NCBI GenBank assembly: GCA_041677125.1 | Contig: JBAYQP010000003.1 | Coordinates: forward strand, 45,421 to 109,420 | Source of the DNA: Desulfuromonadales bacterium | GTDB lineage: Bacteria; Desulfobacterota; Desulfuromonadia; Desulfuromonadales; JACZKF01 | Reading direction: 5' to 3' | DNA length: 64,000 nucleotides | Part shown: positions 38,518 to 64,000 of the stretch, piece by piece | Layout: the number at the start of each line of letters is the position of its first letter | How positions within the stretch are numbered: the stretch's first letter is position 1 | Translations under genes and position numbers: made by a program | The notes under the pieces: model-generated | Database searches by the model: none | The model's input: only the letters and a program-made list of their open reading frames with translations | What the model was told of the DNA's origin: nothing

Positions 38518-38603
38518 GGAGGAGTGGCCGAGTGGCTTAAGGCGGCGGTCTTGAAAACCGTTGAACGAAAGTTCCGTGGGTTCGAATCCTACCTCCTCCG
38601 CCA
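38518..38603 (+). tRNA. tRNA-Ser (anticodon TGA)
   Basis: GGAGGAG acceptor, GCCGAGTGG D-loop, anticodon loop CTTGAAA, long variable arm, GGTTCGAATCC, encoded CCA. Confidence 0.9.
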
Positions 38604-38669
38604 AATTAAAATTGACATTCGGGGCAGCTCAAGTGTAATCTTTGCCCCATTCGAAAAGGCAAAAAGCAC

Positions 38670-38763
<94 letters not shown>

Positions 38764-38810
38764 GTTTTTAAAACTTCAAAACCCCGATCCCGAATCCCGC
38801 ATAAAATCAT

Positions 38811-38839
38811 TTGACAAAAAGATCAAAATAAGAGATAAA
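38811..38839 (+). promoter_or_regulatory. Putative sigma70 promoter for tRNA-Arg
   Basis: TTGACA (38811-38816), 17-nt spacer, GATAAA (38834-38839), ~18 nt upstream of the tRNA 5' end. A similar TTGACA at 38612 precedes tRNA-Ser(GCT). Confidence 0.4.
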
Positions 38840-38857
38840 TTCATCTCTTCACCCCAC

Positions 38858-38934
<77 letters not shown>

Positions 38935-45881: not shown

Positions 45882-46132
45882 GCCGCCCGCCTTTTTTCGA
45901 TGAAGTCGGCCAGGGTGTTCACCGTCTGCAGCGCCGGCCGGCCCTCTTCCATATCCTTGATCTCGACCCCGAAGTGTTTCTGCACCAGCACGATCAGCTC
46001 GACCACGTCGAGAGAATCGAGACCGAGGCCCTCGCCGAACAGCGGCATGTCGTCCTGGATGTCGTCCACGGTGATGTCCTCCAGGTTCAAGCCCTCGATC
46101 AGGATTTTCTTCAAATTCTCTTTGACACTCAT
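45878..46132 (-). CDS. Acyl carrier protein (cluster ACP 2)
   Basis: GLDSLDVVELIVLVQ motif. 84 aa from the ATG at 46132 (ATGA overlap). Confidence 0.85.
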   Translation of the reverse strand: MSVKENLKKILIEGLNLEDITVDDIQDDMPLFGEGLGLDSLDVVELIVLVQKHFGVEIKDMEEGRPALQTVNTLADFIEKRRAA

Positions 46133-48304: not shown

Positions 48305-49750
48305 CTAGCTTTCCATCCGTTCGCTGCTACGGGTGAAGCGCAGGAAAGAGCCGAAATTGCCGGCAAAGCGCCGCCAGCTGTCGGGGGAGCGCCAGAGCAT
48401 CGCCGCATAGCCGAGGAGCACCTTCGGTCGGCTGTAGTGCCGCTGGTAAAAGGTGTTGAACAGCAGGTCCAGGCGCTCCCGGGTCATCCCCTGCGGCACG
48501 AAGAGGAAATGCATGCAGTCCATGCGCGGCCAGTCCTCGTCGAAGCTCCCCAAATCCCTGATCTTCTCATAAAGGGGCGAGCCGGGAAAAGGGGTAAATT
48601 TCGCCAGATTGAAATCGTCGATGGGCAGCGAAAACACATATTCCATGCTGCGGCGGATGCTCTCCTCGCTCTCTCCCGGCAACCCCATCATCAGCAATCC
48701 CTTGACCCGGATGCCGGCCTGTTTGATCAGGCGGATCTTCGTTGCCAGCATGTCCAGGTCGGCGTTCTGCCGGTGCTGCGCCAGCAGCTGCGGATCGCCG
48801 GTCTCGATGCCGAGGCTTGCCATCCAGCAGCCCGCCGCCTTCATCAGCCGCAGCAGCTCGCCATCGACATGCTCGGCGCGCACCGCGCAGTTGAAGGTCA
48901 CGCCGAGGGGGCGGTCGATCATCCGGCGGCAGAACTCCTCCACCCGATCGCGATGAAAGGTGAACTGGTCGTCGTAGAAGTTGACGTGGCGGATGCCGAA
49001 GCGCTCGCGCAGGTAGCGCAGATGTTCGTACAGGTACTCCGCCGAGTTGAAACGGAACGTGCGGCCGAACACCGAGCGGTCGCAATAGCTGCAGGCGTAG
49101 GGGCAGCCGCGGCTGGAGATGCAGCTGGTGTTGGGCGCCTTCGGGTAGTTGAAGATCGGCAGCTTGTAGACGTGCGGAAAACCGGCGAGTTTTTCGTAGG
49201 CGGGAAAAGGCAGGCGGTCCAGATCGATGCCCCGGCCGCGATAGCCGCTGAAGCGCACCTCCGCGCCGTCGCGCCAGACGATGCCCGGCACCTTTTCCGG
49301 CTCCTCCCAGCCGCCCTGCATCAGTTCGGTGAGGCTCTGCTCCCCCTCGCCGGCGATGACGAAGTCGACCGCCGGATACCCCTGCAGCACGTGTTCTTTC
49401 AGGGCCGAGGCGTGCGGGCCGCCGAAAACGGCGCGGATGCCGGGCAGCAGGCTTTTGGCCAGCTCCGCCAGACGCACCCCGTCGAGAAAGCTGGAGGTGG
49501 TGCAGGAGATGCCGAGCCAGGCCGGTCGCTCGGCGAGCAGGCGCTCGCGCAGGCTGGCTTCGGCATCCGGGTGGGCGAAGCAGTCGAGGATATCCGCCTG
49601 CAGCCCTTCTTTCTCCAGCCACGCCGCGATGCTCGCCAGCCCGAGGGGGGGCATCAGATTGGCCAGGCGGGAAATGTCCCGGCCGGCCGCCTCGGCCGGG
49701 TAGCCGAGGGGATGCAGCAGCAGAATCTTGCCTGGGTCGAGAGCGCTCAT
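48305..49750 (-). CDS. B12-binding domain radical SAM protein 1 (COG1032-type)
   Basis: N-terminal Rossmann-like B12-binding region (ILLLHP...PPLGLASIAAWLEKEG). SRGCPYACSYC CX3CX2C motif. ATG at 49750 (ATGA overlap). The 977-aa track ORF is an artefactual extension. Confidence 0.85.
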   Translation of the reverse strand: MSALDPGKILLLHPLGYPAEAAGRDISRLANLMPPLGLASIAAWLEKEGLQADILDCFAHPDAEASLRERLLAERPAWLGISCTTSSFLDGVRLAELAKSLLPGIRAVFGGPHASALKEHVLQGYPAVDFVIAGEGEQSLTELMQGGWEEPEKVPGIVWRDGAEVRFSGYRGRGIDLDRLPFPAYEKLAGFPHVYKLPIFNYPKAPNTSCISSRGCPYACSYCDRSVFGRTFRFNSAEYLYEHLRYLRERFGIRHVNFYDDQFTFHRDRVEEFCRRMIDRPLGVTFNCAVRAEHVDGELLRLMKAAGCWMASLGIETGDPQLLAQHRQNADLDMLATKIRLIKQAGIRVKGLLMMGLPGESEESIRRSMEYVFSLPIDDFNLAKFTPFPGSPLYEKIRDLGSFDEDWPRMDCMHFLFVPQGMTRERLDLLFNTFYQRHYSRPKVLLGYAAMLWRSPDSWRRFAGNFGSFLRFTRSSERMES

Positions 49751-51114
49751 TTCAGGGTGACTCCCGGCGGGCCGAAGGGGACCAGGCTGTCCCAGAGAAT
49801 CCCTCGGAAGCCGAAACGATGCATCACCGTCAGGCGCGCCTGTCCCTCGGATGGCGGGAAGATGCGGTCGCGCCGGCGGCGGAAGGAGGCGAGAATGGCG
49901 GCGTTCATCCATTCGGCATCCACGGCCGGAGAGAAGTAGTAGCTCGGCTTCAGCAGGGACATTTCGGCGGCGAGCACCCCCTCGCGCACCGCCTGGGCGT
50001 GCAGGTCGGTGCCGGGGAGAATGCGGATGCCGGAGAAGGCGAAGACGACGCACTGCTCGAGACGGGCCAGGTTCGCCAGCCCCTCGGTTACCGTGGCCGG
50101 CGTTTCGCCGGGCACGCCGAACATGACGTAATGGGCGCAGGGCAGCCGCTCCTCGACGCAGGCCCGGCTGACAGCCTCGACCTCGGCGAAGCTGAAGCCC
50201 TTGCCGATGGCGGCCAGGGTGGCGTCGCTGGCCGCATCGGTTCCGAGCTCCAGGGCGTAGAGGCCGGAGCGCTTCATCAGGGCCAGGTCGGCGCGACCCA
50301 TGCCTTGCGGCCGGAAGAAGGCGCACCAGCGAATGCCGGCGTCTTGCCGCAGCAACTCCTCGGCGATCTCCAGATGGTGGCCGGCGGGGTCGTTGAAGAC
50401 CGAGTCGGTGAAGAAAAAAGTGTCCGCCCCGAATTCGGCGCGGATGCGCCGCAGCTCCTCCACCACCGCCTCCGCCGGGCGGGCGCGGAAACCGCATCCC
50501 TCCAGCTGCGGATAGCTGCAGTAGGTGCAGGCGAAGGGACAGCCGCGTTTGGTCTGCAGATTGAGCATGCCGGTTTGTTCGAGATAGAAGCGCACCAGTT
50601 CCGGTTCCAGCAGCGGCGCCCCGATGCCGTTGCCGGCCAGGGGCGAGCCGTTCGCCTGCACCGGCGTCGCCGGCTTCTCGCCTCGGCCGAGGCGCTCCAC
50701 CAGGTCGGGAAACCGCCGCTCCCCTTCGCCGACGATGCCGTAATCGGCGCCGACGTAGGCGAGAATTTCTTCCGGCAGGATGGAGAAGGCGGGGCCGCCG
50801 AGAACAACCGGGGCGTCGGTTGCCCGCCGCACCCGGGAGACCAGCTGCCGCGCCTGGGCGAGGTACCAGGCGTTCTCGCCGCTGAAGGAGTCGACGTTGT
50901 CGATGTTGCGCAGCGACAGGCCGACCACCTCGGGGGCGAAGACGCGCACCGCCTCTTCCAGCGCCGTCTCCGAGCGGCCGGCGGCAAGAAAATCGAATTG
51001 CCGCACCTGATGGCCGCGACCGGCGCAAGCGGCGGCGACCATGGCCATGCCGAGCGGGTAGACCGGGAACGGCTCGCAGGTGACGTTGCTGGAGACGAGA
51101 AAGACGCGACTCAT
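49747..51114 (-). CDS. B12-binding domain radical SAM protein 2
   Basis: VFLVSSN...YPLGMAMVAAACAGRGH B12-like region. KRGCPFACTYC motif. ATGA overlaps on both sides. Confidence 0.85.
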   Translation of the reverse strand: MSRVFLVSSNVTCEPFPVYPLGMAMVAAACAGRGHQVRQFDFLAAGRSETALEEAVRVFAPEVVGLSLRNIDNVDSFSGENAWYLAQARQLVSRVRRATDAPVVLGGPAFSILPEEILAYVGADYGIVGEGERRFPDLVERLGRGEKPATPVQANGSPLAGNGIGAPLLEPELVRFYLEQTGMLNLQTKRGCPFACTYCSYPQLEGCGFRARPAEAVVEELRRIRAEFGADTFFFTDSVFNDPAGHHLEIAEELLRQDAGIRWCAFFRPQGMGRADLALMKRSGLYALELGTDAASDATLAAIGKGFSFAEVEAVSRACVEERLPCAHYVMFGVPGETPATVTEGLANLARLEQCVVFAFSGIRILPGTDLHAQAVREGVLAAEMSLLKPSYYFSPAVDAEWMNAAILASFRRRRDRIFPPSEGQARLTVMHRFGFRGILWDSLVPFGPPGVTLK

Positions 51115-52373
51115 CTAGCCGCCTCGCCACGAAAACTGCGCCGGGTGCGCGGATCGTAGCGCCGGTAGGTGCCGTCGGCGATCTCGCGGCCGATGACCCG
51201 TTTGAACAGCTCCCCCATTTTGAGCTGATAGCCGCCATCGGCGTAGAAGGTGTCCCAGGCGTAATGGTACATCTCCTGCAACTTCTCCGGGGTCATCTTC
51301 TTCGGCTGGAAGACCACCTTGTCGGCGCTGTAGTCGTGCCAGTTGCTGTTCAGAATCCGCCCCTCGTTCTGCATCTGGGTGCGCACCGGCGAATGCGGGA
51401 AGGGGGTGAGGATGGTGAACTCGGCGACATCGAGTTCCACCTCGATGAGGAAATCGACCAGCCGCTTGATGTCATCCGCGTCCTGGTCGTCGGTGCCGAG
51501 CAGGATCGTTCCCTCGACGCCGATGCCGTGATCCTTGAGGCGGCGGATGCGGTTGCGGATAACATCGGAGGTATCGAAAACCGCCTGATAGACATACCAG
51601 GCGCCGGCATCGGCGGCCAGCTTGAGAATTTCCGGATCGTCGAGGATCGGGTGGGAGACCCACTTCTTCTTCAGCGGGATCATGGCCGTGAACAGCTCTT
51701 TCAACCACTGGCGATCCTGGGCGAGGGAATTGTCGACGATGAACAGCCGATTGTTCTGGATCGCCTCCATTTCGGCGATCACCTGCTCGATCGGCCGCGG
51801 GCGAAACCGGGTGCCGCCGAGAAAGCCGGTGCAGCAGGGAAAGCAATCGAATTTGCAGCCCCGGGACGCATGCACCAGATCGAGCATCTGCACGCCGCGG
51901 TAGTTGTAGAGGTCGCGGTTGAGGATCTCGCGGCGGGCGGTGCCGACCAGCATGATATCCGGCGGATTGTTCATGTAATCGTAGGTCTTGCGCAGCCGGC
52001 CGTTGCGAAAATCCTCCACCACCGCCGCGAAGCGTCCCTCCGCTTCGCCGAGGAAAACGGCGTCGGCGTGGTCGGCGACCTCTTCGGCGTGCAGCATGAC
52101 GGCAATGCCGCCGAAGATCACCGGCACGCCTTGCCGCCGGTAGTGATCGGCGATTTCGAAGGCGCGCGGCAGTTGACAGGTGAGCATCACCGAAAGAGCA
52201 ATCAGATCGGCCGGGGCGGCAAAGTCGAGGGGCTGCACGTTTTCATCGGTGAAGCTCAGTTCCACCTCGGGAGGCACGGTGGCGGCAAAGACGACGGGCC
52301 CGTGCGGCGGCAGGTGGAACTCGGTCTGCCGGTCGAGCTTCGGCCAGCGGGGATAGATCAGGTGCATGCGCAT
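51111..52373 (-). CDS. B12-binding domain radical SAM protein 3
   Basis: MHLIYP...VPVIFGGIAV B12-like region. SRGCKFDCFPCC (CX3CX2C). GAAAGGA RBS. Confidence 0.85.
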   Translation of the reverse strand: MRMHLIYPRWPKLDRQTEFHLPPHGPVVFAATVPPEVELSFTDENVQPLDFAAPADLIALSVMLTCQLPRAFEIADHYRRQGVPVIFGGIAVMLHAEEVADHADAVFLGEAEGRFAAVVEDFRNGRLRKTYDYMNNPPDIMLVGTARREILNRDLYNYRGVQMLDLVHASRGCKFDCFPCCTGFLGGTRFRPRPIEQVIAEMEAIQNNRLFIVDNSLAQDRQWLKELFTAMIPLKKKWVSHPILDDPEILKLAADAGAWYVYQAVFDTSDVIRNRIRRLKDHGIGVEGTILLGTDDQDADDIKRLVDFLIEVELDVAEFTILTPFPHSPVRTQMQNEGRILNSNWHDYSADKVVFQPKKMTPEKLQEMYHYAWDTFYADGGYQLKMGELFKRVIGREIADGTYRRYDPRTRRSFRGEAAR

Positions 52374-52463: not shown

Positions 52464-53177
52464 TTATTCTGAAAGAGGCCTGCGCAAAAGGGGGACCAAC
52501 TCCGCCAACGAGCGTATCTCCTTGCCGGCCATCCGTATTTTCCCCGTTTGCAGGGCGATTTGCCCCAGCGCCTGACCATGCTTGCCGCCCGGCCGGGCGA
52601 GAACGAGGAAAACCGCGCCGGGCGGCGCCTCTCCCGCCGGCGCCAGAGAAGCCGGCCGCGCCAAGTCGCAGATGCCCGCCACCGCCAGGTCCGCCTCGTC
52701 CCAGGCGAGCGTCTCCAGGGCCAGGCGCAGGGGGGTCAGACCGTTCTCTTCCGCGGCGCTGACGACATAGGCCGGGCCGGTGAGGCCGAAGCGGATCGCC
52801 GCCTCGCCAAGAAAGCAGTTCGGCAGGGTGTAGGCGAAGAGGTTGGGACTGGCCAGGCGTCCCTGCTGCGGCAGAACGGAATCGAAGTAGTCGTTGTCGG
52901 TGGCCAGGCAGCCGTAGCGGCTGCCGGCGATCAGAGCCACCGGGCGCTTCTGCTGCCAGGCATCGAGGCCGGCATCCTGCAGCGCGAGCGCGATGCCGGC
53001 GAGGCCGATGCGGGAGAAGGGATCGAGGCGGCCAAAGCGCGGGTCGACCTCGGCGAAAACGTCCTTGCGGGTCACCGCCGGCAGCTCGCCGCACTCCAGA
53101 GCGAAGGCCGTCTCCTGCCGCCCCCGGCCGAAACCGGCCGTCGTCACCCAACCGATGCCGAGAATAACGCCGATCAT
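52464..53177 (-). CDS. Short ketosynthase N-terminal-like protein without catalytic Cys (KS partner)
   Basis: 237 aa. KS N-domain-like (RIGLAGIALALQDAG, GLTGPAYVVSAAEENG) but no Cys/His triad. ATGA overlap with the upstream KS. Confidence 0.65.
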   Translation of the reverse strand: MIGVILGIGWVTTAGFGRGRQETAFALECGELPAVTRKDVFAEVDPRFGRLDPFSRIGLAGIALALQDAGLDAWQQKRPVALIAGSRYGCLATDNDYFDSVLPQQGRLASPNLFAYTLPNCFLGEAAIRFGLTGPAYVVSAAEENGLTPLRLALETLAWDEADLAVAGICDLARPASLAPAGEAPPGAVFLVLARPGGKHGQALGQIALQTGKIRMAGKEIRSLAELVPLLRRPLSE

Positions 53178-54307
53178 CCCTCACCTCCCGCCATGGTCAG
53201 CAGCAGGGCGGCATTGATGCCGCCGAAGCCGGAGTTGGTGGTGAGCAGAAATTCCCCTGGCAGGGGCACGGCTTCGGCGCTGACCCAGCCTGCCGCGTTC
53301 TCCTCAGCTTCGGCGAAGCCGGTGGTGGGCGGCAGAATCGTTTCCTGGAGGCTCTTCAGCGCCAGCGCCGTCTCGATGCCGCCGGCCGCGCCCAAGGTGT
53401 GGCCAAGAGCGCCCTTTACCGAATGAATCGGCAGGGTGCGTCCGAAAATCTGTTGGAAAGCGGTCAGTTCCATAGCATCGTTGTAGATGGTGCCGGTGCC
53501 GTGGGCGTTGATCGCCGCCACGGCGGCCGGCGGCAGATCCGCCTGCCGCAGCGCCCCCCGCACCGCCTGGATGAGACCGCAACCGTCCCGGGCCGGCGCG
53601 GTGATGTGGTGGGCGTCGCCGGCCACCCCCCAGCCGAGAATCGCGCCGAGGGGCGCCCGCCCTTCGCGCCGTGCCCGCTCCGGAGCCATCAGCAGCAGGG
53701 CGGCGGCGCCCTCGCCCAGGGTCAGGCCGCTGCGGCGCCGGTCGAAGGGGCGGCAGGGCTCGGCCGAGAGTCCCTTGAGGGCGGAGAAACCGGAGAAAAC
53801 GAATTCGGAAACCAGATCGACGCAGCAGACCAGCACCGTTTCACTCTGGCCGTGGGCGATCATCGCCGCCCCCCGCGCCAGGGCAATGGTCGAGGAGGCG
53901 CAGGCGGCATTGATGTTCAGCCCCGGCGTGCTCAGGCCGAACCGGCGGCCGATGGCTTGGGGCAGTCCGCCGGCGAGCAAATCCTCCTCGTGGGCTGTCG
54001 CCCCCCGCCGCTGGCGCTCCAGGGCGTCGATTCCCCATTTTGTGGTGGCGGTCAGGGCGGCGGCATCGGCGGGAACCGGGCCGAAATCATGCAAAAGCCG
54101 GTCGAGCAGGGGACGCACGCCGGAGGCTTCGTCCTGCGCCGCCAGGCCGTCGATCTCCGCCGCATGCCGGCAAATGTAACCGTCCGTGGCGAACCGGCGC
54201 ACCGGGCGGATGCCCGATTCGCCCGCCAGCAGCCGACGCCAGCTGGCCTCCAGAGTGTCGCCGAGGGCGGTGACCGTCTCGGCGGCGACAATCCACACCG
54301 GCCTCAT
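53174..54307 (-). CDS. Beta-ketoacyl-ACP synthase
   Basis: NAACASS, DAHHITAP, NAHGTGT, GHTLGAAG. ATGA overlaps. Confidence 0.9.
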   Translation of the reverse strand: MRPVWIVAAETVTALGDTLEASWRRLLAGESGIRPVRRFATDGYICRHAAEIDGLAAQDEASGVRPLLDRLLHDFGPVPADAAALTATTKWGIDALERQRRGATAHEEDLLAGGLPQAIGRRFGLSTPGLNINAACASSTIALARGAAMIAHGQSETVLVCCVDLVSEFVFSGFSALKGLSAEPCRPFDRRRSGLTLGEGAAALLLMAPERARREGRAPLGAILGWGVAGDAHHITAPARDGCGLIQAVRGALRQADLPPAAVAAINAHGTGTIYNDAMELTAFQQIFGRTLPIHSVKGALGHTLGAAGGIETALALKSLQETILPPTTGFAEAEENAAGWVSAEAVPLPGEFLLTTNSGFGGINAALLLTMAGGEG

Positions 54308-54765
54308 GACAGCTCCCCCCGTTGCCAGCGCTCGCGAAAAGCCGCCATGAAGGGCGGCGGCACCAGCAGGACGTTCTCCTCGTGATCAAGAAGCATTTGC
54401 ACCGAATAGCCGGTGGTCGTCACCTGGCCGGCGGCATTGCGGATGATGAATTCATGGTTGAGGCGCACCGCGTCCGACCAGTGCAGCACCCCTTCGATGG
54501 TGAAGTCGTCCTGAAAATGCAGGGGACGGTGGTAATCGCAATGCAGCTTGCGCAGGGGAGCGACCACCCCCTGCCGGTACATCTCCATATAGCCGAGGCC
54601 GTAGCGATCCCCCAAGGCCACTCGGGCGTCCTCGAAATAGCCGGGATAGCGGCCGTGCCAGACGATCCCCAGCGGATCGACTTCCTCGAAGCGCACCCGC
54701 CGCGCGACAACCGCCCGCAGCGGTGTCGGATCGCCGGCACGGGGGGGGAAGTACGGTTTCAGCAT
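54304..54765 (-). CDS. 4HBT/YbgC-like hotdog thioesterase
   Basis: RVRFEEVDPLGIVWHGRYPGYFEDARV is a typical 4HBT catalytic region. Start at MLKPYF (54765). Confidence 0.75.
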   Translation of the reverse strand: MLKPYFPPRAGDPTPLRAVVARRVRFEEVDPLGIVWHGRYPGYFEDARVALGDRYGLGYMEMYRQGVVAPLRKLHCDYHRPLHFQDDFTIEGVLHWSDAVRLNHEFIIRNAAGQVTTTGYSVQMLLDHEENVLLVPPPFMAAFRERWQRGELS

Positions 54766-55148
54766 CGGCTCGCCTCCGCCGGTGTCAGAACGAGGATGAA
54801 TGAGGCCGCCAGGTCCTCGTCGCGCCACAGCCGCGTCGCGCAAAAGAGTCGGTCGTCGCGGTGCTGCTCCCGGCTCTCGATGCGGATTTCCTGCTGCGGC
54901 CGCAATTGTTGCAGGAACTTGGCGTTTTCCACCCCCACCAGGCGCAGTGGCTGGCCCAGGGCATCCTCGGCGACGCAGAGGCCGGCCTGCAGTTGCACCA
55001 CCGCCGGCAAAATCGGATAGCCGGGGAAATGGCCGGCGAAGCCGGGAAAATCGGCCGGAAAACAGAAGCGCTGCTGCACTGCGCCCGGCGCGATCCGGCG
55101 CAGGTGGTCGATGGCGACCGCTCGAATAGCTTTGGTGATTTTACTCAT
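54759..55148 (-). CDS. FabZ/FabA-like hotdog dehydratase
   Basis: FAGHFPGYPILPAVVQLQ motif (HFPxxPxxPG-like). 129 aa from the ATG at 55148. Confidence 0.65.
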   Translation of the reverse strand: MSKITKAIRAVAIDHLRRIAPGAVQQRFCFPADFPGFAGHFPGYPILPAVVQLQAGLCVAEDALGQPLRLVGVENAKFLQQLRPQQEIRIESREQHRDDRLFCATRLWRDEDLAASFILVLTPAEASRC

Positions 55149-55815
55149 CGGTAACTCTTGCTTCCTCCAGCCACAGGGTAAGCCGGTAGCCGCCGCGGGC
55201 GTCCTCAAGAAGGATGCCGCCGGGCGCCGGTGTCTCGGCCGCCGGTTGATAATCGAAGTAGCGCACCCGCCACTCCTCCTCGTCCCCCTGCGCCTGCTTT
55301 TCAAGCAGCTGGGCATCGGGACCGCCGAAGACGAAAAGAAGCACCCGTTCTTTCTCCCGGCGGGTAAGTCGGTACTCCGTTGCGCCGATAGCGAGTCGAT
55401 CCGTGACCAAGGGCTGCGGATCGAGAAACACGTGGCGCACCGCAGCGGCAATGGCCCCGCTCACCCCGGGGGTGCGGGCCAGTTCGGGGAAGAGAAAATG
55501 TTCCACGTGCGTCTGGGGGGTTACGGCGATATCGAATAATTTCACCCCGAGATCGTTCAGGCCGATCAGGCGCGCCTCGCGGCGGCCGGTGTCGAACCGG
55601 AGAAAACCGCTCATCGGCACCTTCGCCCCGCGAATTTCGAAGAGCACCGTTTGCCGGATGCGCCAGACCCGCTCGCCGCCGGTCCACAGATTCTCCAGCA
55701 GCTCCGCCGCGCTCAGCGGTCGGGTCGGCGTGGCCGGCATCGGCGCGAAGGGCGGGGACGCGCAGCCGCCGGCCAGCAGCAAAGTAAGCCAAAGCAGGCA
55801 GCCGATCTTCTTCAT
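55141..55815 (-). CDS. Lipoprotein (DUF3261-like, aryl-polyene-cluster associated)
   Basis: Lipobox LLLAGGC after MKKIGCLLWLT. ATGA overlap with the MMPL gene. The track ORF to 56856 is an artefact. Confidence 0.7.
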   Translation of the reverse strand: MKKIGCLLWLTLLLAGGCASPPFAPMPATPTRPLSAAELLENLWTGGERVWRIRQTVLFEIRGAKVPMSGFLRFDTGRREARLIGLNDLGVKLFDIAVTPQTHVEHFLFPELARTPGVSGAIAAAVRHVFLDPQPLVTDRLAIGATEYRLTRREKERVLLFVFGGPDAQLLEKQAQGDEEEWRVRYFDYQPAAETPAPGGILLEDARGGYRLTLWLEEARVTDE

Positions 55816-58172
55816 CGACGCTCCCCGCGATAGAAAGCCGGAATGACCAACAACGCGGCGGGTATGGCGGCGCCGATGCCGAGCAGCACCGTGACGCCGA
55901 TTGAATGCAGCGCCGGATGGCGGGCCAGAATCAGGGCGCCGAAGCCGGCGATGGTCGACAAGCCGGAAACCAGCACCGCCTGGTCGGTGCCGTGGTCGTA
56001 TGCTTCGCCGAATTTGCACACCATGAAAATTCCGTAATCGACTCCCAGGCCGATGATCAGCGCGGTGGCCACGATGTTGAGCAAGGTGAAATTCAAACCG
56101 GTCAGGCCCATGATTCCGAACATGACCGCCAGTCCCGTCGCCACCGGCAGCAGGGCGAGGAGAACCGGCTTCGGCCGGCGGAACAAAAAGCCGACGAAAA
56201 GCGCCACCACCAGGATGGCCAGGGTCAGAAAACGGGAAAAATCGGCGCTGATCGCTTGGCTCAGCTGCCGTCCGAAGCGCCCCTGTGAGATCAGCCGGAC
56301 CGTCGGCAAATCCTGCTGCCGGTCGTCGAAAAAAGCAATGGTCGCCGCTCCGTCCGGCACCAGGGTGAGGACGCGGTAGCCCTCCTGCGTGGGCAGGACC
56401 ATCGCCTCCACCATTTCGCCCAGGCCGGCCTGCCGCAGTCCTGCGGGCGTAATCTTTTCGACGGGCGCCGCGAGGCCATGGAAGAAAGGATCGAAGGCGC
56501 CGGCGGCAAAACCGAGGCGGCCGGCGGCGCTGCGCAACTCGTCCTGGATGCGCAGCCCCTGCTCCCCTTGCCAGAACGCCCGCCAGGCGCGCCGGTGGCG
56601 TTCCTGCACGCCGGCGGGGGGCAGCAGCGGCGCCAGGCTGACCGCCGCCATGGCTGGTTTTTCGCCAAGCGCATCGAACAGCCGAGCGTTGGCGCTCAAG
56701 GCGCTTTCCAGATCCGGCCCCTCGGCAAAGGCCATTGCCATGCCCCGCATCTCTCCCCAGACCGCCTGCACCTCCTGTTCCGCCGCCCGGATTTCGGCCG
56801 GAACCAGGCTCAGGCTGCGCAGGTCGCCATCGATCCGCAGGTGACTGGCCGGCCATAAACTAAGCAGGAGAATCGCCGCCCAGGCGCCGATGATCCATTT
56901 GCGCGGCAAGCGTTCGCCGATGCGCAGCCATGCGGCCGGCGAACGCACGTTGCCGGCCGCCGCCGGGGGAATCAACTGCGGCAGCACGACCAGCGACAAC
57001 AACAGGGCGGCGCCCAGGCCGGAAATGGCGAAGATCGCCAGTTGTCGCTGGCCGGGCAGCTCGGAGGCGAGCAGGACGGCAAAGGCGGCGATGGTGGTGA
57101 AGCCGCCGAAAAGCACCGGGCGGGCCACCTCGGCGATAATCTCGGCCGGCATTCGTCCGCCGTGGCGCAGGGCGAAATAGACGTGGACGGCGTAATCGAC
57201 GGAAATGCCGAGCAGAACCGCGCCGAAACCGAGGGTGACCGCCGACACCGTTCCGTAACCGACGGCGACGGCCAGCGCGGCCAGGCAAAGGACCGAAATC
57301 GGCACCAGAAAGGGAAACAGCGCCCGCCCGTGGCGCAGAAACACCAGAAAGAGAAGGAGCAAGGCGAGCATCGAGGCGGTCAGGGTGAAGCCCAGGTCCC
57401 GCTGGATGGCGCCGGCATTGGCGACGGTGTAGCGATGGCCGCTGACCACCGTGGCGCGCACCTCCGGCGGCAGTTGCGCCAGGGCCGCATCAAGGGCGCG
57501 CAACATCTGCTCGGCCCCTCCCGAGTCGGTGATGGCGACCGGGGTGTCGGCGATGAGCAGGGCGTGCCGGCCGTCGGCGCTGACGAACCGGCCGCTGTCG
57601 AGTTGCGCCTGCGGCACCAGATTCAGATGCTGCAGCTTGGCCATGCCGAGACGGTTCAGGCCCAGCGGATCGCGCCGCAGGGCGTCCTTGAGCACCCAGC
57701 CCTCCGGCGACAGCAACCGGTCGCGCACCTGGTGCAGGCGATTCTCGATTTCCGCCGCGTCCAGGCCGGCGGCCAAAGACTCCAGTTCCGCTGCGTCGAC
57801 CAGGTTGGGCAGGGCGGCGGTCAGCCAGGCGATGATATTTCCCTGCGCCATATCGGCCGGCCCGGCGACCACCCGGTCGAACCAGGGGGGGCCGAGGGCG
57901 CCCCGCAGCCGGTCGACCGCCGTGGCCAGCAACGCGGCATCGGCGTCCGGCGCCAGCGCAAGGGAGAGCAGAACCTTGCGGGCGAAGGGCGCCTGCTCCA
58001 GCAGGGCGAAATCGCTGCGCACGGGACCGTCCGGCAACATCGCGGCGATGTTCTCCTCCAGGCGTATTTCGCGAAAGGCGAGAACGCTCAGGAGAACCAC
58101 CGCTGCTGTCAGGACGAAAAGGCTCCGGCGGCGCGGGGCCAAAAATCGGTGAATATGGGCAAAAAGCTGCAA
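55812..58172 (-). CDS. MMPL/RND-superfamily lipid exporter
   Basis: 786 aa. Two 6-TM bundles each preceded by a large periplasmic loop. The start is a TTG in the track; exact start uncertain. Confidence 0.85.
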   Translation of the reverse strand: MQLFAHIHRFLAPRRRSLFVLTAAVVLLSVLAFREIRLEENIAAMLPDGPVRSDFALLEQAPFARKVLLSLALAPDADAALLATAVDRLRGALGPPWFDRVVAGPADMAQGNIIAWLTAALPNLVDAAELESLAAGLDAAEIENRLHQVRDRLLSPEGWVLKDALRRDPLGLNRLGMAKLQHLNLVPQAQLDSGRFVSADGRHALLIADTPVAITDSGGAEQMLRALDAALAQLPPEVRATVVSGHRYTVANAGAIQRDLGFTLTASMLALLLLFLVFLRHGRALFPFLVPISVLCLAALAVAVGYGTVSAVTLGFGAVLLGISVDYAVHVYFALRHGGRMPAEIIAEVARPVLFGGFTTIAAFAVLLASELPGQRQLAIFAISGLGAALLLSLVVLPQLIPPAAAGNVRSPAAWLRIGERLPRKWIIGAWAAILLLSLWPASHLRIDGDLRSLSLVPAEIRAAEQEVQAVWGEMRGMAMAFAEGPDLESALSANARLFDALGEKPAMAAVSLAPLLPPAGVQERHRRAWRAFWQGEQGLRIQDELRSAAGRLGFAAGAFDPFFHGLAAPVEKITPAGLRQAGLGEMVEAMVLPTQEGYRVLTLVPDGAATIAFFDDRQQDLPTVRLISQGRFGRQLSQAISADFSRFLTLAILVVALFVGFLFRRPKPVLLALLPVATGLAVMFGIMGLTGLNFTLLNIVATALIIGLGVDYGIFMVCKFGEAYDHGTDQAVLVSGLSTIAGFGALILARHPALHSIGVTVLLGIGAAIPAALLVIPAFYRGERR

Positions 58173-58186
58173 ATCAACTCACTTGT

Positions 58187-58804
58187 TCAGAACGCGTCGG
58201 CCGGCAGGGGAGCGTTGACGCGCGCCGCGGAAAACCGGATGCGGGTGAAATCGCCGTCGATCTCGTGAACTTCCACCGATTGCACATGCCGTCCGTCGCC
58301 GGCGAAGGCGACGCGCAGATGATCGAGAAAGCCGCCGGCGGCGGCCAGCGGCTCCAGGCGCAGCACCGCCGGCTGTTCGCTGACAATCGCGATGCGAAAT
58401 TGCTGCCGCAGTCGGCTGAAGTCGCCGCCGGCCCAGGCGAGAAGCTGCTCGGCCACCAGCTTCATCACCGGTTCGCGGTCCAGATTGAAATCCTCGCTCT
58501 GGCCGGTGCGGGCATGCCAGCGCCGACCCTGGTCACCATCGAGGACGAAGCCGGTGGCCACCGGTTCGGTCAATTCCCAGCGCAGACGATTCGGCCTTTG
58601 GAAATAAAAACGTCCCTTCGAGGTGAGAACCTCCTGGAAAACGGCCAGGTGTTTCTCCTGTACGAAGTCGCTGGCCAGAGTGGCGACGTCGGCTGTCTGC
58701 CGGCGCAGGCGCTCAAGGACCGCTTCCGGGTTCGGTTCGGCCGCCGCGGCGGCAACCGTGCCGGTGGTGAGCAGCAAAAACAGTACGACAACGATTCGGC
58801 GCAT
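58187..58804 (-). CDS. LolA-like outer-membrane lipoprotein carrier protein
   Basis: Signal peptide, then F.Q......L....S.G.FYFQRPNRLRWE, a LolA family pattern. Confidence 0.7.
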   Translation of the reverse strand: MRRIVVVLFLLLTTGTVAAAAAEPNPEAVLERLRRQTADVATLASDFVQEKHLAVFQEVLTSKGRFYFQRPNRLRWELTEPVATGFVLDGDQGRRWHARTGQSEDFNLDREPVMKLVAEQLLAWAGGDFSRLRQQFRIAIVSEQPAVLRLEPLAAAGGFLDHLRVAFAGDGRHVQSVEVHEIDGDFTRIRFSAARVNAPLPADAF

Positions 58805-59292
58805 CAGTCGGTCGCCTCGCTTTCATCGGCAATCCAGAGCTTGAGGGCGCCCCTGGCAATCGATCGCTCTTTGCGCCAGATCTCCCCCTCGGCCATGGCG
58901 AATCCGCCCAGATTTGCCACCGTGCGCAATTCGATCCGCAGCCGATCGCCCACATGCGCCGTCCCGGTGAAAGCGAAGGAACTGACGCCGACCAGAAAAC
59001 CTTTTCTGACCGGCCGCCCCCGGCGCTGGTCTTCATAGCCCTGCAAGGCGGCAAAGGACTGCGCCAGCATCTCGATGAGTCCGGCCGCCTCCAGGCGACC
59101 TTCGGCGTCGGTCAACGGGCCGTCGCCGCGCACCGTCGCGGCGACGGTGGCGCCGCCCCCGGCGCAGGCGCACAGCTCATCGACGAGCCGCATCGGCAGA
59201 CGGTGCGGGATCAGTTCTTCGGCCGGCCGGGGAAGGGGGAGATCAATCATCGCGGCGCAGCTTTCCTCATCGCCAATAAATCGACAGGTCAT
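58804..59292 (-). CDS. Hotdog-fold dehydratase (FabZ-like, second dehydratase subunit)
   Basis: LIPHRLPMRLVDEL and GLIEMLAQS motifs, typical of APE-cluster dehydratases. Start at 59292 or 59250. Confidence 0.6.
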   Translation of the reverse strand: MTCRFIGDEESCAAMIDLPLPRPAEELIPHRLPMRLVDELCACAGGGATVAATVRGDGPLTDAEGRLEAAGLIEMLAQSFAALQGYEDQRRGRPVRKGFLVGVSSFAFTGTAHVGDRLRIELRTVANLGGFAMAEGEIWRKERSIARGALKLWIADESEATD

Positions 59293-60853
59293 CGAAAATC
59301 TGGCTGGAAAAAAGGATCCGGCGCAATTTCACCAGGTCGTCATGGAAGACCCGGTCGTTGTTGTACACGGTAAATTCCCGGCTGAGAATTTCGTAAATGC
59401 GTCCCGTTCCGCGGCCGAGGCCGGCCGCGTTGCGGAAGGACAGGGCCTGCAGATCGGCCAGGATTTCCATGGTGACGACATGTTTGGCGTTGCTGACCGA
59501 CTTGAACGCCTTGCGCGCGGCGACTGTTCCCATGCTGACCACATCCTGGTTGGAGGCGTTGCAGGAAATGGAATTCGTGCTCACCGGGCCGGCCAACTGC
59601 CGGTTTTCCGCCGTGGTCGAGGTGGCCAGATACTGCGCACCCATAAAGCCCATGGTCAGCCCGGGGGTGCCGGGGATGAGAAACTCGGGGAGGCCCTCGT
59701 TCAACTTCCGGTCAAGGTATTTGTTCAGCCGCCGCTCGGAAATGTTGCAGAGAGTGGCGACGGCGATGCACAGGGCGTCCATGCTGAAGCTGATGCTCTG
59801 GCCGTGAAAATTGCCGCCATGGATGATCTTTTTTTGCTCCGGAATAATGATCGGATTGTCGTTGGTGCTGTTCGCTTCGGTTTCCACCGTACGCACCGCC
59901 ATGGCGATCGCCTCGGCCACCGGCGCCAGCACCTGCGGCGTGCAGCGCACCGAGTAGACGTCCTGCACGTTGATGCTCGTCTCGTAGACCGGGCCGTCCT
60001 GCTGCTGCTTGCGGATCAACTCGTGCATGTCGGCGCGGCGGGTGATGTTGCGCGACCCCTCATAGAGCCGGCGAATCGTATCGGCAATCTCGATTTGCCC
60101 GGCGTGCGGCTTCACCCGGTGCAGGTCCTCGTCGAAGGCATCGTCGATGCCGCCGAAAATCTCCAGGGAAAAGGCGCCGCTGACGCAGGACAGGCGCAGC
60201 AGCTTACGGGCGCCGAAGAGGGCGAAGGCGGCCAGGGCGGTCATGGCGCTGGTGCCGTTCATCAGTGCGATACCCTCCTTGTAGGAGAGGCGCATCGGGG
60301 TGATGCCCATTTCGGCGAAAACGTCGGCGGTGGGCCGCAGCTGTTCGCGATAATACACCTGCCCCTCGCCGATGATCGCCAGCGACATGTGGGCGAGATG
60401 GATCAGATCGCCGGAGGCGCCGACGCTGCCGCATTCGGGAATGAAAGGGGCAATGCCCCGGTTGATCATCTCCCGCATGAATTCCAACAACTCGGTGCGC
60501 ACACCGCTGTAGCCTTTGACCAGCGTGTTCAGACGCACCACCAAAACGGCCAGGGCGATGTACGGCTTGAGCGGGTCGCCGAGACCGGCAGCGTGGCTGC
60601 GAATCAGGTTGATCTGCAAGGTTTCGGTTTCGTTGTCGCCGATAATTTTATTGCACATCGGGCCGAAGGAGGTATTGACGCCGTAGATGATGCGGCGGGC
60701 GGCAACTTCCTCCTCAAGAAACCGGCGACTGGCGCGACAGCGCTCCAGGGCGGCCGGGTCGAGCGCCACCTGCCGGTCGCCGACGCCGATGGCGACGATC
60801 TCCTCGATGGTCAGATCGTTGCCGTTGAGAATGACAGTAGCTTTATCAGCCAT
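59267..60853 (-). CDS. MIO-dependent aromatic amino acid/histidine ammonia-lyase (HAL/PAL/TAL family)
   Basis: GSVGASGDLIHLAHM (the Ala-Ser-Gly MIO precursor), YGVNTSFG, NLIRSHAAGLG. 528 aa. Confidence 0.9.
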   Translation of the reverse strand: MADKATVILNGNDLTIEEIVAIGVGDRQVALDPAALERCRASRRFLEEEVAARRIIYGVNTSFGPMCNKIIGDNETETLQINLIRSHAAGLGDPLKPYIALAVLVVRLNTLVKGYSGVRTELLEFMREMINRGIAPFIPECGSVGASGDLIHLAHMSLAIIGEGQVYYREQLRPTADVFAEMGITPMRLSYKEGIALMNGTSAMTALAAFALFGARKLLRLSCVSGAFSLEIFGGIDDAFDEDLHRVKPHAGQIEIADTIRRLYEGSRNITRRADMHELIRKQQQDGPVYETSINVQDVYSVRCTPQVLAPVAEAIAMAVRTVETEANSTNDNPIIIPEQKKIIHGGNFHGQSISFSMDALCIAVATLCNISERRLNKYLDRKLNEGLPEFLIPGTPGLTMGFMGAQYLATSTTAENRQLAGPVSTNSISCNASNQDVVSMGTVAARKAFKSVSNAKHVVTMEILADLQALSFRNAAGLGRGTGRIYEILSREFTVYNNDRVFHDDLVKLRRILFSSQIFDDLSIYWR

Positions 60854-60970
60854 AATGAGGACCTTTCAGAGTGAAACGAAGCGGAAAATCAGCCTGTCGG
60901 ATAAGAAGACCTGGAGAAACACGGCGTTGCCTGTGTCCATCTCGGGAAATCCATATTGTTTCGGGCCAGC

Positions 60971-62281
60971 CTATGGTCGGGTTTTGCGGTGATCGAAAAA
61001 AACCACCGCTTTGCGTTTGCCTTCCGGCATGGTGCGCGCGGTTACCGTTTCGGCGGCGGCCATCACGACTTCGGGAGTCACCCGCAGCCGTGCGGTCAGT
61101 CGTTCGCCGATCGCCTCGGCGCTCAGGGAATTGTCGCGGCAGGCAACGGTCACCCGCAGGCGGTCGGAAAGATGATATTCGTCGAAAACCTCCAGGTAGT
61201 AGCCACAAATCGACTCGAATTCCTGCAGCACGGCGAAGACGGCCGGCGGGTAAACGGTGGTGCCGCGAATCTTGAGCATCTGCGCCTTGCGGCCGAGGAC
61301 CGGTCCGAGGCGCGGCCAAAGAAGTCCACAGGGGCAGGGCTCGGCATGGAGGACGGCGATGTCGCCGGTGCGAAAGCGCAGAAGCGGCATGCCGGTCACC
61401 TGCAGCGGGGTGACCACCACCTCGCCCGGCGCTCCGGGCGGCAGCGGCGATCCCGCCTCGTCGACGATCTCGACCGCCGCCAGAGCCGGATGCAGATGCC
61501 CTCCCCGGCCGCTTTCGCAATCGGAAAAAGCGGTGGCCATTTCGGTGCTGGCGTAGGTGCCGAACAGGGGGGCCCGCCAGCGCTCCACCAGCCGCTGCCC
61601 CAATGGCGAAAGATTCAGCTCGCGGCTGCGAACCGGTTCGCCGATACCGACCAGACGGCGCACTCCGGTCGCCGCCGGATCGATCCCTTCGGCCTGCAGC
61701 CGCTCGGCCAGGGCGAGCAGCAGCGTCGGGACGCCGATGATGGCCGTCGGTTTTTGCTGGCGCACCAGCTCCGCCAGCAGGGCGAGATTGCTGGCGCCGG
61801 CGCGGATGGCGGTGGCGCCGAGGTGCGCCAGACCCAGAAAATAGGCAAGGCCGGCCATGAAGCAGCGGTCGAGGGCGACGGCGATCAGCACCCGGTCGTC
61901 GGGGCCAATGCCCATGCGGCGAAAAGATGACGCTTCATTGGCGGTGAGGCGGTCCAGATCGCGCCGGGTCTGCAAAAGCGGAACCGGCGCGTCGGTCGTC
62001 CCCGAGGTCAGGCAGACATCGACAATCGCCGCCGGCTCGACACAGAGGAACTCGCGATGGGCCGCCCCCAGATCCCCTTTGTCGGTGAAGGGGAGGCGGT
62101 GCAGGTCGCTGCAGCCGGCAATCTGCCGCAGGTCAATGCCGTTTTCGGCAAAGCGCCGCCGATAAAAAGGGGAATGATCGGCCAGATAGCGCAGATGATC
62201 GAGCAGCAGAGCATCCTGATGCGCCTGCAGCGTGGCAAGCGGCGCCATTTCGAATTCGGGATTGTCGACGGCGGAAAACAT
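60971..62281 (-). CDS. PaaK/F390-synthetase-like adenylate-forming acyl-CoA (or acyl-ACP) ligase
   Basis: LLDHLRYLADHSPFYRRRF, LPFTDKGDL, TSGTTDAPV, and the C-terminal domain are typical of the phenylacetate-CoA ligase family. Confidence 0.8.
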   Translation of the reverse strand: MFSAVDNPEFEMAPLATLQAHQDALLLDHLRYLADHSPFYRRRFAENGIDLRQIAGCSDLHRLPFTDKGDLGAAHREFLCVEPAAIVDVCLTSGTTDAPVPLLQTRRDLDRLTANEASSFRRMGIGPDDRVLIAVALDRCFMAGLAYFLGLAHLGATAIRAGASNLALLAELVRQQKPTAIIGVPTLLLALAERLQAEGIDPAATGVRRLVGIGEPVRSRELNLSPLGQRLVERWRAPLFGTYASTEMATAFSDCESGRGGHLHPALAAVEIVDEAGSPLPPGAPGEVVVTPLQVTGMPLLRFRTGDIAVLHAEPCPCGLLWPRLGPVLGRKAQMLKIRGTTVYPPAVFAVLQEFESICGYYLEVFDEYHLSDRLRVTVACRDNSLSAEAIGERLTARLRVTPEVVMAAAETVTARTMPEGKRKAVVFFDHRKTRP

Positions 62282-63081
62282 TATTCGCCTCGATCCGCGC
62301 GCATTTTCTGCAAATTCTCCATCATGTCCGCCTTAACCTTTCGCCGCAGATCGCCATGGCTTTCGAAGGAAGTCGAATCCACCGGCGGCAGCGCCCGTAA
62401 CCGCACCTGGGTCGGCCGCAGCCAGCGCCGGCCGGGCGGCAGGAGCCGATCGGTGCCGGTGATACAGAGGGGGTAGACGGGGCAGCCGAGTTGGCGTGCC
62501 AGGCAGAAGGCCCCCGAATAGAAGCGCTGCATCTGGCCGTCCCGGCTGCGGTGCCCTTCGGGAAAAAAAAGGAGATGTCCGCCCTGGGTGATGATGCGCC
62601 GGCCGGCCGCCAGGGTTTCGTCCACATTCATCCGCTCGACATCGAGGTACTCGGCCATGCGCATGAAGGCGGCATAGCCGGGTATGCGAAAAGGCCAGGA
62701 ACGCACGGCAAAGGTGATGTCGAAGACCGGCAGCAGCGCCATGCAATAGGTGTCGAAAAACGACAGGTGATTAATGACGAAAATGCCCGGCGTGTGAAAC
62801 TGTTCGGCAGACAAATTCTCCCGCCGAAATCGAACGAAGGGGGAGACGATCAGCATCCAGCCCCGGCCGTAAATCCAGATCAGACTCCGGACGATGCGCC
62901 CCGCCGGCCAGCCGGCGCCAACCTTTGCCAGCAGCAGATAAAGGGGCGAGAGGGCGATCCCGACCACGGTCCACAACACCAGCAGCGGGTAGACCGCCAG
63001 CGTCATCAGCAGCGCCGCTGGGCCGGGGCGCTCCAGAATCACCGGGTTTGTTTCGTTGACTGCCATCTGCCGGATGCCCAC
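62281..63081 (-). CDS. PlsC-family 1-acyl-sn-glycerol-3-phosphate acyltransferase-like protein
   Basis: NHLSFFD (HX4D), FPEGHRS, N-terminal TM. Start is the GTG at 63081 or the ATG at 63066. Confidence 0.8.
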   Translation of the reverse strand: MGIRQMAVNETNPVILERPGPAALLMTLAVYPLLVLWTVVGIALSPLYLLLAKVGAGWPAGRIVRSLIWIYGRGWMLIVSPFVRFRRENLSAEQFHTPGIFVINHLSFFDTYCMALLPVFDITFAVRSWPFRIPGYAAFMRMAEYLDVERMNVDETLAAGRRIITQGGHLLFFPEGHRSRDGQMQRFYSGAFCLARQLGCPVYPLCITGTDRLLPPGRRWLRPTQVRLRALPPVDSTSFESHGDLRRKVKADMMENLQKMRADRGE

Positions 63082-63345
63082 TTAGGCAGTTTTGGCCAGA
63101 GTTGACTGTTTGCCGATGACGAATCGGTGGATGTCGCCGAGGGTGCGGATCTGGCGAATCGCCTCTTCTTCGCGAATCTTGAAGCCGAAGGCGCCTTCGA
63201 GAACGATGACCAGATCGACGATATCCAGACTGTCCAGACCAAGATCGTCAAAGAGTGTCGCGTCGGCGGTCATCGCCAGTGGCTGCAATTCGAATTCCTC
63301 GGCCAGGGCGGTATTGATCCGCTCGATGATTTGTTGTTCCGTCAT
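63082..63345 (-). CDS. Acyl carrier protein (cluster ACP 1)
   Basis: LGLDSLDIVDLVIVLE motif. 87 aa. ATGA overlap with the upstream KS. Confidence 0.85.
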   Translation of the reverse strand: MTEQQIIERINTALAEEFELQPLAMTADATLFDDLGLDSLDIVDLVIVLEGAFGFKIREEEAIRQIRTLGDIHRFVIGKQSTLAKTA

Positions 63346-64000
63346 GCAAGACTCCTTAAAACGATCGATGAATTGACCCCCCCCAGGGCAAAATTGTTTT
63401 TGATGATGGCGCGCGGCGCCGCCGATTCCACCTTGCGGATATGGCGCAGGGGAGCGCAGGCGGGATCCGGATTATCCAGATTGAGCGTGGGGATGAGACA
63501 GCCGCGCCGGAGCATTTCCACTGCCGCCACCAGTTCAAGGGAGCCGCTGGCGGCCATGGCGTGGCCCAGGTGCCCCTTGAGGCTGCTGACCGGCACCTCG
63601 CCACCGAAGAGGCGGAAAATAGCGCCCCCTTCGGCGATATCTCCCTGCTCGGTGGCGGTGGCGTGCGCGTTTACGTAATCGATTTCTTCCTTGTTCATCC
63701 GGCTGTCGGCGAGGGCCAGGCGCATGCACTGCTCGATGGCGGCGGAGTTCGGATTGGCGATGCTGGCCGGATCGGTCAGGGTGGCAAAACCGGCGACCTC
63801 GCCGAGTATCGTCGCTTTGCGCGCTTGCGCCGAAGCGAGGGATTCGAGGAGCAGAATGCCGCAACCCTCGCCGCAGACGACGCCGTCGCGGCCGCGGTCG
63901 AAGGGACGGGGGGTCTGCCGGGGCTGCTCATTCCACCTGCAGGAGGCGGCGTTCATGATGTCGAAAGTGCCAGCCGTCAGCGGATGAAACTCGTCGGCGC
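63342..64000 (-). CDS. Beta-ketoacyl-ACP synthase, C-terminal part (gene continues beyond the window)
   Basis: PFDRGRDG, NAHATAT, KGHLGHAMAASG, NNFALGGVNSSIVL. The reading frame is open to the window edge. Confidence 0.85.
   Translation of the reverse strand, partial: ADEFHPLTAGTFDIMNAASCRWNEQPRQTPRPFDRGRDGVVCGEGCGILLLESLASAQARKATILGEVAGFATLTDPASIANPNSAAIEQCMRLALADSRMNKEEIDYVNAHATATEQGDIAEGGAIFRLFGGEVPVSSLKGHLGHAMAASGSLELVAAVEMLRRGCLIPTLNLDNPDPACAPLRHIRKVESAAPRAIIKNNFALGGVNSSIVLRSLA

Follow-up and report, generated by a model that had tools for sequence, protein, structure and literature searches.

A predicted tyrosine ammonia-lyase and a FlxY-like ligase form a putative starter-unit module in an aryl-polyene-like gene cluster of a Desulfuromonadales bacterium

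The window analysed here is a 64,000-nucleotide stretch of the genome of a Desulfuromonadales bacterium (assembly GCA_041677125.1, contig JBAYQP010000003.1). It carries two neighboring genes on the minus strand: (i) a gene encoding an aromatic amino acid ammonia-lyase dependent on the 4-methylideneimidazole-5-one (MIO) cofactor (59267-60853; 528 aa, ATG start) and (ii) a gene encoding a PaaK-fold adenylating ligase (60971-62281; 436 aa), placed 117 bp upstream of the lyase gene. Judged from its sequence and context, the pair probably converts tyrosine, through 4-coumarate, into a coumaroyl thioester with which a type II synthase of aryl-polyene-like character is primed. The lyase is a predicted tyrosine ammonia-lyase (TAL) of an uncharacterised FlxA-like clade, while its partner is a predicted FlxY-like ligase of 4-coumarate (aryl-acrylate), acting on coenzyme A (CoA) or on an acyl carrier protein (ACP). 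The original prediction for this region had described a starter-unit module made up of an MIO lyase with an Ala-Ser-Gly triad and a PaaK-type ligase immediately upstream. Both open reading frames, their domains and the gap between them were confirmed, and the two genes do lie inside an aryl-polyene/flexirubin-like type II cluster; that the genes, their families and their diagnostic residues are real is established far beyond chance. Metagenomic contigs as long as 254 kb, which have been assigned to a Desulfuromonadales metagenome-assembled genome, encode an identical lyase protein.

The lyase matches the Pfam domain Lyase_aromatic (PF00221) over its full length (564 bits, E 2.9e-169; gathering score 27.3). 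Its motif GSVGASGDL (codons at 60404-60430, minus strand, verified by translation) contains the MIO precursor triad Ala146-Ser147-Gly148 (60410-60418, minus strand, likewise verified) and is retained in 79 of 80 genomic relatives (loci L006-L085), the set in which all residue conservation was counted. In the alignment, the triad column corresponds to S143 of the histidine ammonia-lyase (HAL) PpHAL, S150 of RsTAL, S153 of the tyrosine aminomutase (TAM) SgTAM and S203 of the phenylalanine ammonia-lyase (PAL) PcPAL, and the catalytic set Y57, N199, Q297, Y300, R303 and F349 aligns with the published residues of the same four enzymes. The domain score, the triad and the catalytic residues place the protein in the MIO lyase/mutase superfamily. 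On the subfamily models of NCBIfam it scores below every cut-off: HAL subfamily (514.3 vs. 524 bits), hutH (496.5 vs. 539), FlxA (NF053541; 486.7 vs. 700) and TAM (TIGR03832; 452.8 vs. 501).

The ligase combines the Pfam domains AMP-binding and AMP-binding_C_2, the latter of the PaaK type, and carries the core motifs of adenylation enzymes: TSGTT (residue 92), YASTE (243), TGD (305) and GKRK (421). Its closest solved relatives are the phenylacetate-CoA ligases 4r1l and 2y27; it shares their fold and domain pair, but on the PaaK models TIGR02155 and NF041878 it reaches only 131 and 162 bits, against cut-offs of 646-700. The top family is FlxY (NF053551), matched with 445.3 bits from position 5 to position 424 of a 424-position profile (cut-off 520), which is 270 bits ahead of the runner-up family (175 bits). 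FlxY is an enzyme with an expected size of ~49 kDa that makes 4-coumaroyl-CoA with a 121-fold preference over cinnamate, and it is itself less than 12% identical to plant 4-coumarate-CoA ligases (Schöner 2014). Since the flexirubin pathway itself uses a PaaK-fold ligase, the view that such a ligase marks a departure from flexirubin pathways had to be abandoned. Scans of the region around the two genes gave no promoter-like site, terminator-like sites no more frequent than expected by chance (none in the gap between ligase and lyase) and no Rfam match between or around the genes.

Substrate selectivity was examined in a MAFFT alignment with five reference enzymes. The sequences of PpHAL, RsTAL and PcPAL (residues 111-533) were checked against the Protein Data Bank, with zero differences for RsTAL (2o6y) and PcPAL (6f6t/1w27) and a single differing residue for PpHAL (1gkm); the SgTAM sequence was taken from a printed alignment to 2rjr, and the sequence of FjTAL was validated as a member of the FlxA family (902 bits, cut-off 700). 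The alignment columns reproduce the published numbering of PpHAL (Y53, H83, S143, N195, Q277, Y280, R283, F329 and E414), RsTAL (Y60, H89, L90, Y300, R303 and Q436), SgTAM (Y63, H93, S153 and Y415) and PcPAL (F137, L138, S203, N260, Q348, Y351, R354, F400 and Q488), and can thus be relied on at these positions. The five references were joined with the 134 nearest full-length cluster representatives to give a specificity survey of 139 MIO enzymes.

The selectivity switch (motif 1) of the lyase is Ser86-His87 (codons at 60593-60598, minus strand), located within NLIRSHAAG (60584-60610, minus strand, verified by translation). The same column holds S82-H83 in PpHAL, S92-H93 in SgTAM, S79-H80 in FjTAL, H89-L90 in RsTAL and F137-L138 in PcPAL, so the original prediction was right in reading Ser-His, as in HALs, and not His-Leu or Phe-Leu. 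Among the genomic relatives, 79 have Ser-His and one has Gly-His, and His is thus kept in 80/80. Motif 2 is Gln436 (59546-59548, minus strand), which occupies the site of the HAL-defining Glu414 of PpHAL and is aligned with Q436 of RsTAL, Q442 of SgTAM, Q424 of FjTAL and Q488 of PcPAL; Gln is invariant here in the 80 relatives. According to Schöner (2014, supplement), this position is Glu in HALs, where it is reported as invariant, and Gln in TALs and PALs. FlxA combines a HAL-like motif 1 with a TAL/PAL-like motif 2; it deaminates tyrosine, which it prefers ~1000-fold to phenylalanine, whereas histidine yielded no product (Schöner 2014).

In the survey, motifs 1 and 2 taken together sorted the known specificities cleanly: (i) Ser-His with Glu in true HALs (n = 98; e.g., P0130 and P0134, with 684-716 bits on the HAL model), (ii) Ser-His with Gln in FlxA-type TALs and TAMs, (iii) His-Leu with Gln in the RsTAL type and (iv) Ala-Val with Gln in the AdmH-type phenylalanine aminomutases (PAMs; P0150, 864 bits). 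In all 98 Glu-type sequences Glu is paired with His. The Ser-His pair occurs in several tyrosine enzymes, namely SgTAM, FjTAL, P0159 (811 bits on the FlxA model) and P0149 (879 bits on the TAM model). This is a clear example of a switch that is unusable alone: Ser-His with Glu414 marks HALs, while Ser-His with Gln marks tyrosine enzymes.

These residues bear directly on the proposal, made on the strength of the Ser-His pair, that the lyase is HAL-like and that the starter is urocanate or another non-phenolic acrylate. In such a scenario the enzyme would be a HAL, or would act on another non-phenolic amino acid, and the product would bear an imidazole or other non-phenolic head group. Besides the identity of Ser86-His87 with S82-H83 of PpHAL, it draws on the score for the HAL subfamily, just below the cut-off, and on the many relatives named 'histidine ammonia-lyase' by automated pipelines, but we regard it as highly improbable. 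Eight residues of PpHAL, which we take to be the set shown to be essential, include Glu414; seven are kept in the lyase, and the sole change is that of Glu414 to Gln436, the state found in RsTAL, FjTAL, SgTAM and PcPAL. The HAL score gives no support, as true HALs reach 684-716 bits, while the range of 491-601 bits, into which the lyase falls, is what TAMs, PAMs and other Gln-type enzymes score as background. Furthermore, FlxA, which shares motif 1, shows no detectable activity toward histidine, the best family of the partner ligase is that of the 4-coumarate ligase FlxY, and neither hutU nor hutI (urocanase and imidazolonepropionase) was found among the called genes, which cover nearly all of the 64-kb window, or in the neighborhoods of the related loci examined. 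The module is not a hut operon. No sequence evidence was found for the non-phenolic starter and novel head group of the original prediction, and Ser-His does not make the enzyme HAL-like.

Five Gln-type non-HAL enzymes of the survey (P0122, P0131, P0137, P0147 and P0153) score 491-601 bits on the NCBIfam HAL models. Several of them exceed the cut-offs, and the name 'histidine ammonia-lyase' on Gln-type enzymes is therefore likely to be a systematic mis-annotation. When MIO enzymes are named, the selectivity switch must be read together with motif 2.

A lyase acting on phenylalanine, or a relaxed aromatic lyase, would instead provide cinnamate or a substituted cinnamate as the starter. FlxA and FlxY do accept phenylalanine-derived substrates with low efficiency, the clade of the lyase is distinct from FlxA, and the substrate range of these enzymes cannot be read with certainty from sequence (Schöner 2014). 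However, the families specific for phenylalanine lack the His of motif 1 (F137-L138 in PcPAL, Ala-Val in the AdmH type), whereas His87 is conserved in all 80 relatives, as it is in tyrosine enzymes, which makes this explanation unlikely.

Two further positions were considered as markers and rejected. Tyr408 (59630-59632, minus strand) lies in the column of SgTAM Tyr415 and is conserved in 79 of the 80 relatives (it was not read in L057); it does not serve as a phenol-binding discriminator, because most true HALs of the survey also have Tyr there. The column of SgTAM Glu71, occupied by Pro65 in the lyase, was discarded as a lyase/mutase marker, because P0139 and P0147, which belong to the TAM model, have Pro there as well.

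A third possibility is that the enzyme is a tyrosine 2,3-aminomutase whose product, beta-tyrosine, is activated by the ligase. The closest solved relatives of the lyase are indeed two aminomutases, SgTAM (339 bits) and AdmH (330 bits), its score on the TAM model (453 bits) is near the cut-off of 501, and some sequences that share the five-residue signature SHQYP with the lyase pass that cut-off (P0139 with 836 bits and P0147 with 570 bits), so Pro65 is no bar to mutase activity. Nevertheless, the TAM score remains under the cut-off, and the enzyme is paired with an aryl-acid ligase resembling FlxY, in a cluster of type II polyketide synthase (PKS)/fatty acid synthase character, in which no nonribosomal peptide synthetase (NRPS) or amino-acid handling parts were found. 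Known TAMs supply NRPS or enediyne pathways. A neighbor-joining tree also groups the clade, weakly, with the FlxA lyases. We consider mutase chemistry improbable, slightly more so than activity toward phenylalanine.

The relatives of the lyase form a compact and isolated clade. Pairwise identities among the 80 loci, which come from at least 8 phyla and span 33-67% GC, range from 66.5 to 100% (median 75.7%), and no other gene of the cluster is as well conserved as that of the lyase; identities are 41-68% for the ligase and 26-63% for the MMPL exporter. Cultured species with an orthologue of the lyase include Geomonas paludis, Desulfuromusa kysingii and Geoalkalibacter halelectricus. In a protein library clustered at 50% identity, the clade is represented by one full-length sequence (P0121, 71% identical to the lyase) and a few short fragments, while the nearest other cluster representative is 44% identical. 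In the neighbor-joining tree of the 139 MIO enzymes this clade and that of FlxA came out as sisters, with a bootstrap value of 36%, the FlxA clade itself being supported at 93%.

The adjacency of the two genes is conserved. A FlxY-like ligase gene lies directly upstream of the lyase gene in 57 of the 74 loci in which this could be assessed, with gaps of 18-433 bp. The loci without an upstream ligase belong mostly to Fibrobacterota, Chitinispirillaceae, Victivallales and Phycisphaerales, and their neighbors vary. In two loci of Fibrobacterota, L068 (4072-11590) and L077 (4061-11587), the lyase (73-75% identical), with no FlxY-like ligase, faces an operon of genes encoding a B12-radical S-adenosylmethionine (SAM) enzyme, a ketosynthase (KS), a chain length factor (CLF)-like protein, a second KS and a KS-like protein. 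In L057 (9150-21581), of an uncultured bacterium, it stands beside an adenylation (A)-thiolation (T)-sulfotransferase protein and a PKS-NRPS megasynthase with the domain order KS-acyltransferase (AT)-T-aminotransferase-condensation (C)-A, and in L066 beside ApeP-like and MMPL genes. With the exception of L072 and L039, in which no obvious partners were seen nearby, the neighbors are always KS, ACP, dehydratase, LolA and MMPL genes or PKS genes.

Taken together, the combination of Ser-His and Gln as the signature of tyrosine enzymes, the FlxA precedent, the background-level HAL score, the position of the clade as sister to FlxA in the tree, FlxY as the top family of the ligase, the presence of the ligase upstream in 57/74 loci and the lack of hut genes in the neighborhoods examined argue for a pair that converts tyrosine, through 4-coumarate, into a thioester. 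From these data we infer tyrosine as the substrate and lyase rather than mutase chemistry. Several observations weigh against this conclusion: (i) the sister relation to FlxA has a bootstrap value of only 36%; (ii) the lyase misses the FlxA cut-off by a wide margin (487 vs. 700 bits) and is just 39.5% identical to FjTAL and 39.1% to SgTAM in aligned columns; (iii) the solved structure closest to it belongs to an aminomutase and not to a lyase; (iv) the ligase is under the FlxY cut-off (445 vs. 520 bits); and (v) a literature search on His93 and Tyr415 of SgTAM, the residues presumed to bind the phenol, found nothing on their roles. Moreover, the extreme conservation and isolation of the clade could reflect a specialised substrate that is hidden from residue signatures. 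In view of the bootstrap value and of scores below the FlxA, HutH and TAM cut-offs, we do not claim FlxA membership for the clade and file the lyase as an uncharacterised FlxA-like subfamily.

The pair is embedded in a cluster that occupies 43100-64000 of the window and continues beyond its end, where it was read in locus L001 (2109-6801). On the minus strand the order begins, in L001, with genes for a ketoreductase (KR), a KS and an amine-oxidase/phytoene-desaturase-like protein. They are followed by a second KS gene, which runs off the window end (63342-64000), an ACP gene (63082-63345; Pfam PP-binding and NCBIfam ACP models), whose product is a possible starter acceptor, a gene for a PlsC-type acyltransferase (62281-63066; Pfam Acyltransferase), and then the ligase and lyase genes. 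Further along are three blocks, all on the minus strand: (i) an ApeP-like dehydratase, LolA, the MMPL exporter, a 224-aa protein, an ApeI-like dehydratase, a 4HBT thioesterase, a KS and a CLF-like partner (52464-59250); (ii) three genes for B12-binding radical SAM proteins, oriented like the rest of the operon (48305-52373); and (iii) at the distal end, a GT2/DUF2062 protein, an LpxL-type lipid A acyltransferase, a second ACP (45878-46132), a KS, a KS-like protein and PagL (43100-48214). The cluster thus has the complement of an aryl-polyene/flexirubin-type cluster: KS and CLF-like proteins, ApeI/ApeP dehydratases, a KR, ACPs, a thioesterase, LolA, an MMPL exporter, acyltransferases and a glycosyltransferase.

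The first of the B12-radical SAM genes (51111-52373) matches only the B12-binding domain of Pfam, yet it has the CxxxCxxC motif (CKFDCFPC); where an orthologue is present it is 74-81% identical, and it is among the best-conserved genes of the cluster after the lyase. The PagL lipid A deacylase, the LpxL-type lipid A acyltransferase and the GT2/DUF2062 protein are encoded inside the cluster (43100-48214), which hints that an outer-membrane lipid carries the cluster product or is remodelled by it. Outside the cluster, the window is of a housekeeping character (tatC, nadA, mutS2, dnaG, rpoD, cbb3 oxidase, fumarase and serS). This part also contains an RNase P RNA (13931-14317), a single tRNA (11794-11866) and a run of three tRNAs (38518-38931).

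The following pathway is regarded as the most probable. The lyase would convert L-tyrosine into 4-coumarate by MIO-dependent elimination of ammonia, using Ala146-Ser147-Gly148 together with Tyr57, Asn199, Gln297, Tyr300, Arg303 and Phe349. The phenol of tyrosine would be held by His87, Tyr408 and Gln436 in the substrate pocket, which in such enzymes is assembled from three subunits. The upstream ligase would adenylate 4-coumarate and transfer it to CoA or directly to an ACP of the cluster, and the resulting 4-coumaroyl thioester would prime the KS/CLF pair for cycles of reduction and dehydration by the KR and the ApeI/ApeP-type dehydratases. Finally, by analogy with the proposals made for flexirubin and aryl polyenes, the product, predicted to be aryl-headed, would be coupled to a lipid and transported to the envelope through the action of the acyltransferases, LolA and the MMPL exporter.

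In its wider make-up the cluster resembles the 'ladderane-type' type II fatty acid synthase clusters described in Kuenenia, Desulfotalea, Geobacter and Pelobacter carbinolicus, in which multiple FabF paralogues and radical SAM genes accompany a phytoene-desaturase-like gene and one for a 'phenylacetyl-CoA ligase' (Rattray 2009). It differs in the ammonia-lyase, which is unmentioned by Rattray (2009), and no mention of such an enzyme in ladderane-type clusters was found in the Pelobacter genome paper, in the ladderane expression paper or in the 2026 KS/CLF preprint. In the present cluster the ladderane-type make-up is joined with hallmarks of aryl polyenes (ApeI/ApeP-like dehydratases, LolA and MMPL). 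Ladderane-type clusters, with no function assigned, are recorded by antiSMASH in Desulfobacterota, Fibrobacterota, Planctomycetota and Verrucomicrobiota, and the lyase clade is found in largely the same groups.

The TAL/FlxY-type entry point within the cluster suggests that ladderane-type clusters make aryl-primed lipids. A broader and more speculative proposal, which we put forward tentatively, is that in anaerobes other than anammox bacteria (Desulfuromonadota, Fibrobacterota, Planctomycetota, Victivallales and others) the ladderane-type clusters may be primed by a tyrosine-derived aryl starter from the lyase clade, giving an undescribed aryl-headed envelope lipid remodelled by the three B12-radical SAM enzymes and the phytoene-desaturase-like oxidase; the isolation of the clade might also hide a substrate or reaction other than that of TALs. 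The lyase-ligase pair offers a testable entry into a very widespread cluster type of these anaerobes, designated 'ladderane' by antiSMASH. Should tyrosine label a lipid in Geomonas or Desulfuromusa, the cluster product would become findable.

Among the characterised enzymes, HutH of Pseudomonas putida (PpHAL; 1b8f/1gkm) has the fold, the MIO triad, the Ser-His pair and the seven retained essential residues in common with the lyase of the window. It is distinguished by Glu414 in place of Gln436, shows 33.5% identity in aligned columns and is without a segment of 17 residues found in the lyase and, wholly or partly, in TAL and TAM sequences. RsTAL, which acts with a 4-coumarate ligase in the photoactive yellow protein pathway, represents the same chemistry as predicted here (tyrosine to 4-coumarate to a thioester), but it has His89-Leu90 at the switch and is 33% identical to the lyase in aligned columns. 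The tyrosine 2,3-aminomutase SgTAM (SgcC4; 2ohy/2rjr) matches the lyase at S92-H93, Q442 and Y415 (S86-H87, Q436 and Y408 of the lyase), and is unlike it in having Glu71 in place of Pro65 and in serving an enediyne/NRPS pathway.

The most similar system is that of FlxA and FlxY of Chitinophaga pinensis, with FjTAL as the counterpart of FlxA in Flavobacterium johnsoniae. It likewise consists of an MIO lyase with Ser-His and Gln and a PaaK-fold ligase of ~48 kDa, encoded in a cluster with type II KS, KR and dehydratase genes, LolA, an acyltransferase, a glycosyltransferase and an exporter. The two systems differ in several respects: (i) Tyr408 of the lyase is replaced by Phe in the FlxA clade; (ii) the genes of the pair are adjacent in the window, whereas flxA (Cpin_1853) and flxY (Cpin_1877) are placed at opposite ends of their cluster; (iii) the cluster of the window carries three B12-radical SAM genes and an amine-oxidase-like gene, and no dialkylresorcinol genes were seen in it; and (iv) the host is an anaerobic member of Desulfuromonadales, while flexirubin hosts belong to Bacteroidota. 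The lyase-ligase pair follows the known logic of FlxA and FlxY, and its unusual part is an uncharacterised lyase clade in 'ladderane-type' clusters with B12-radical SAM genes.

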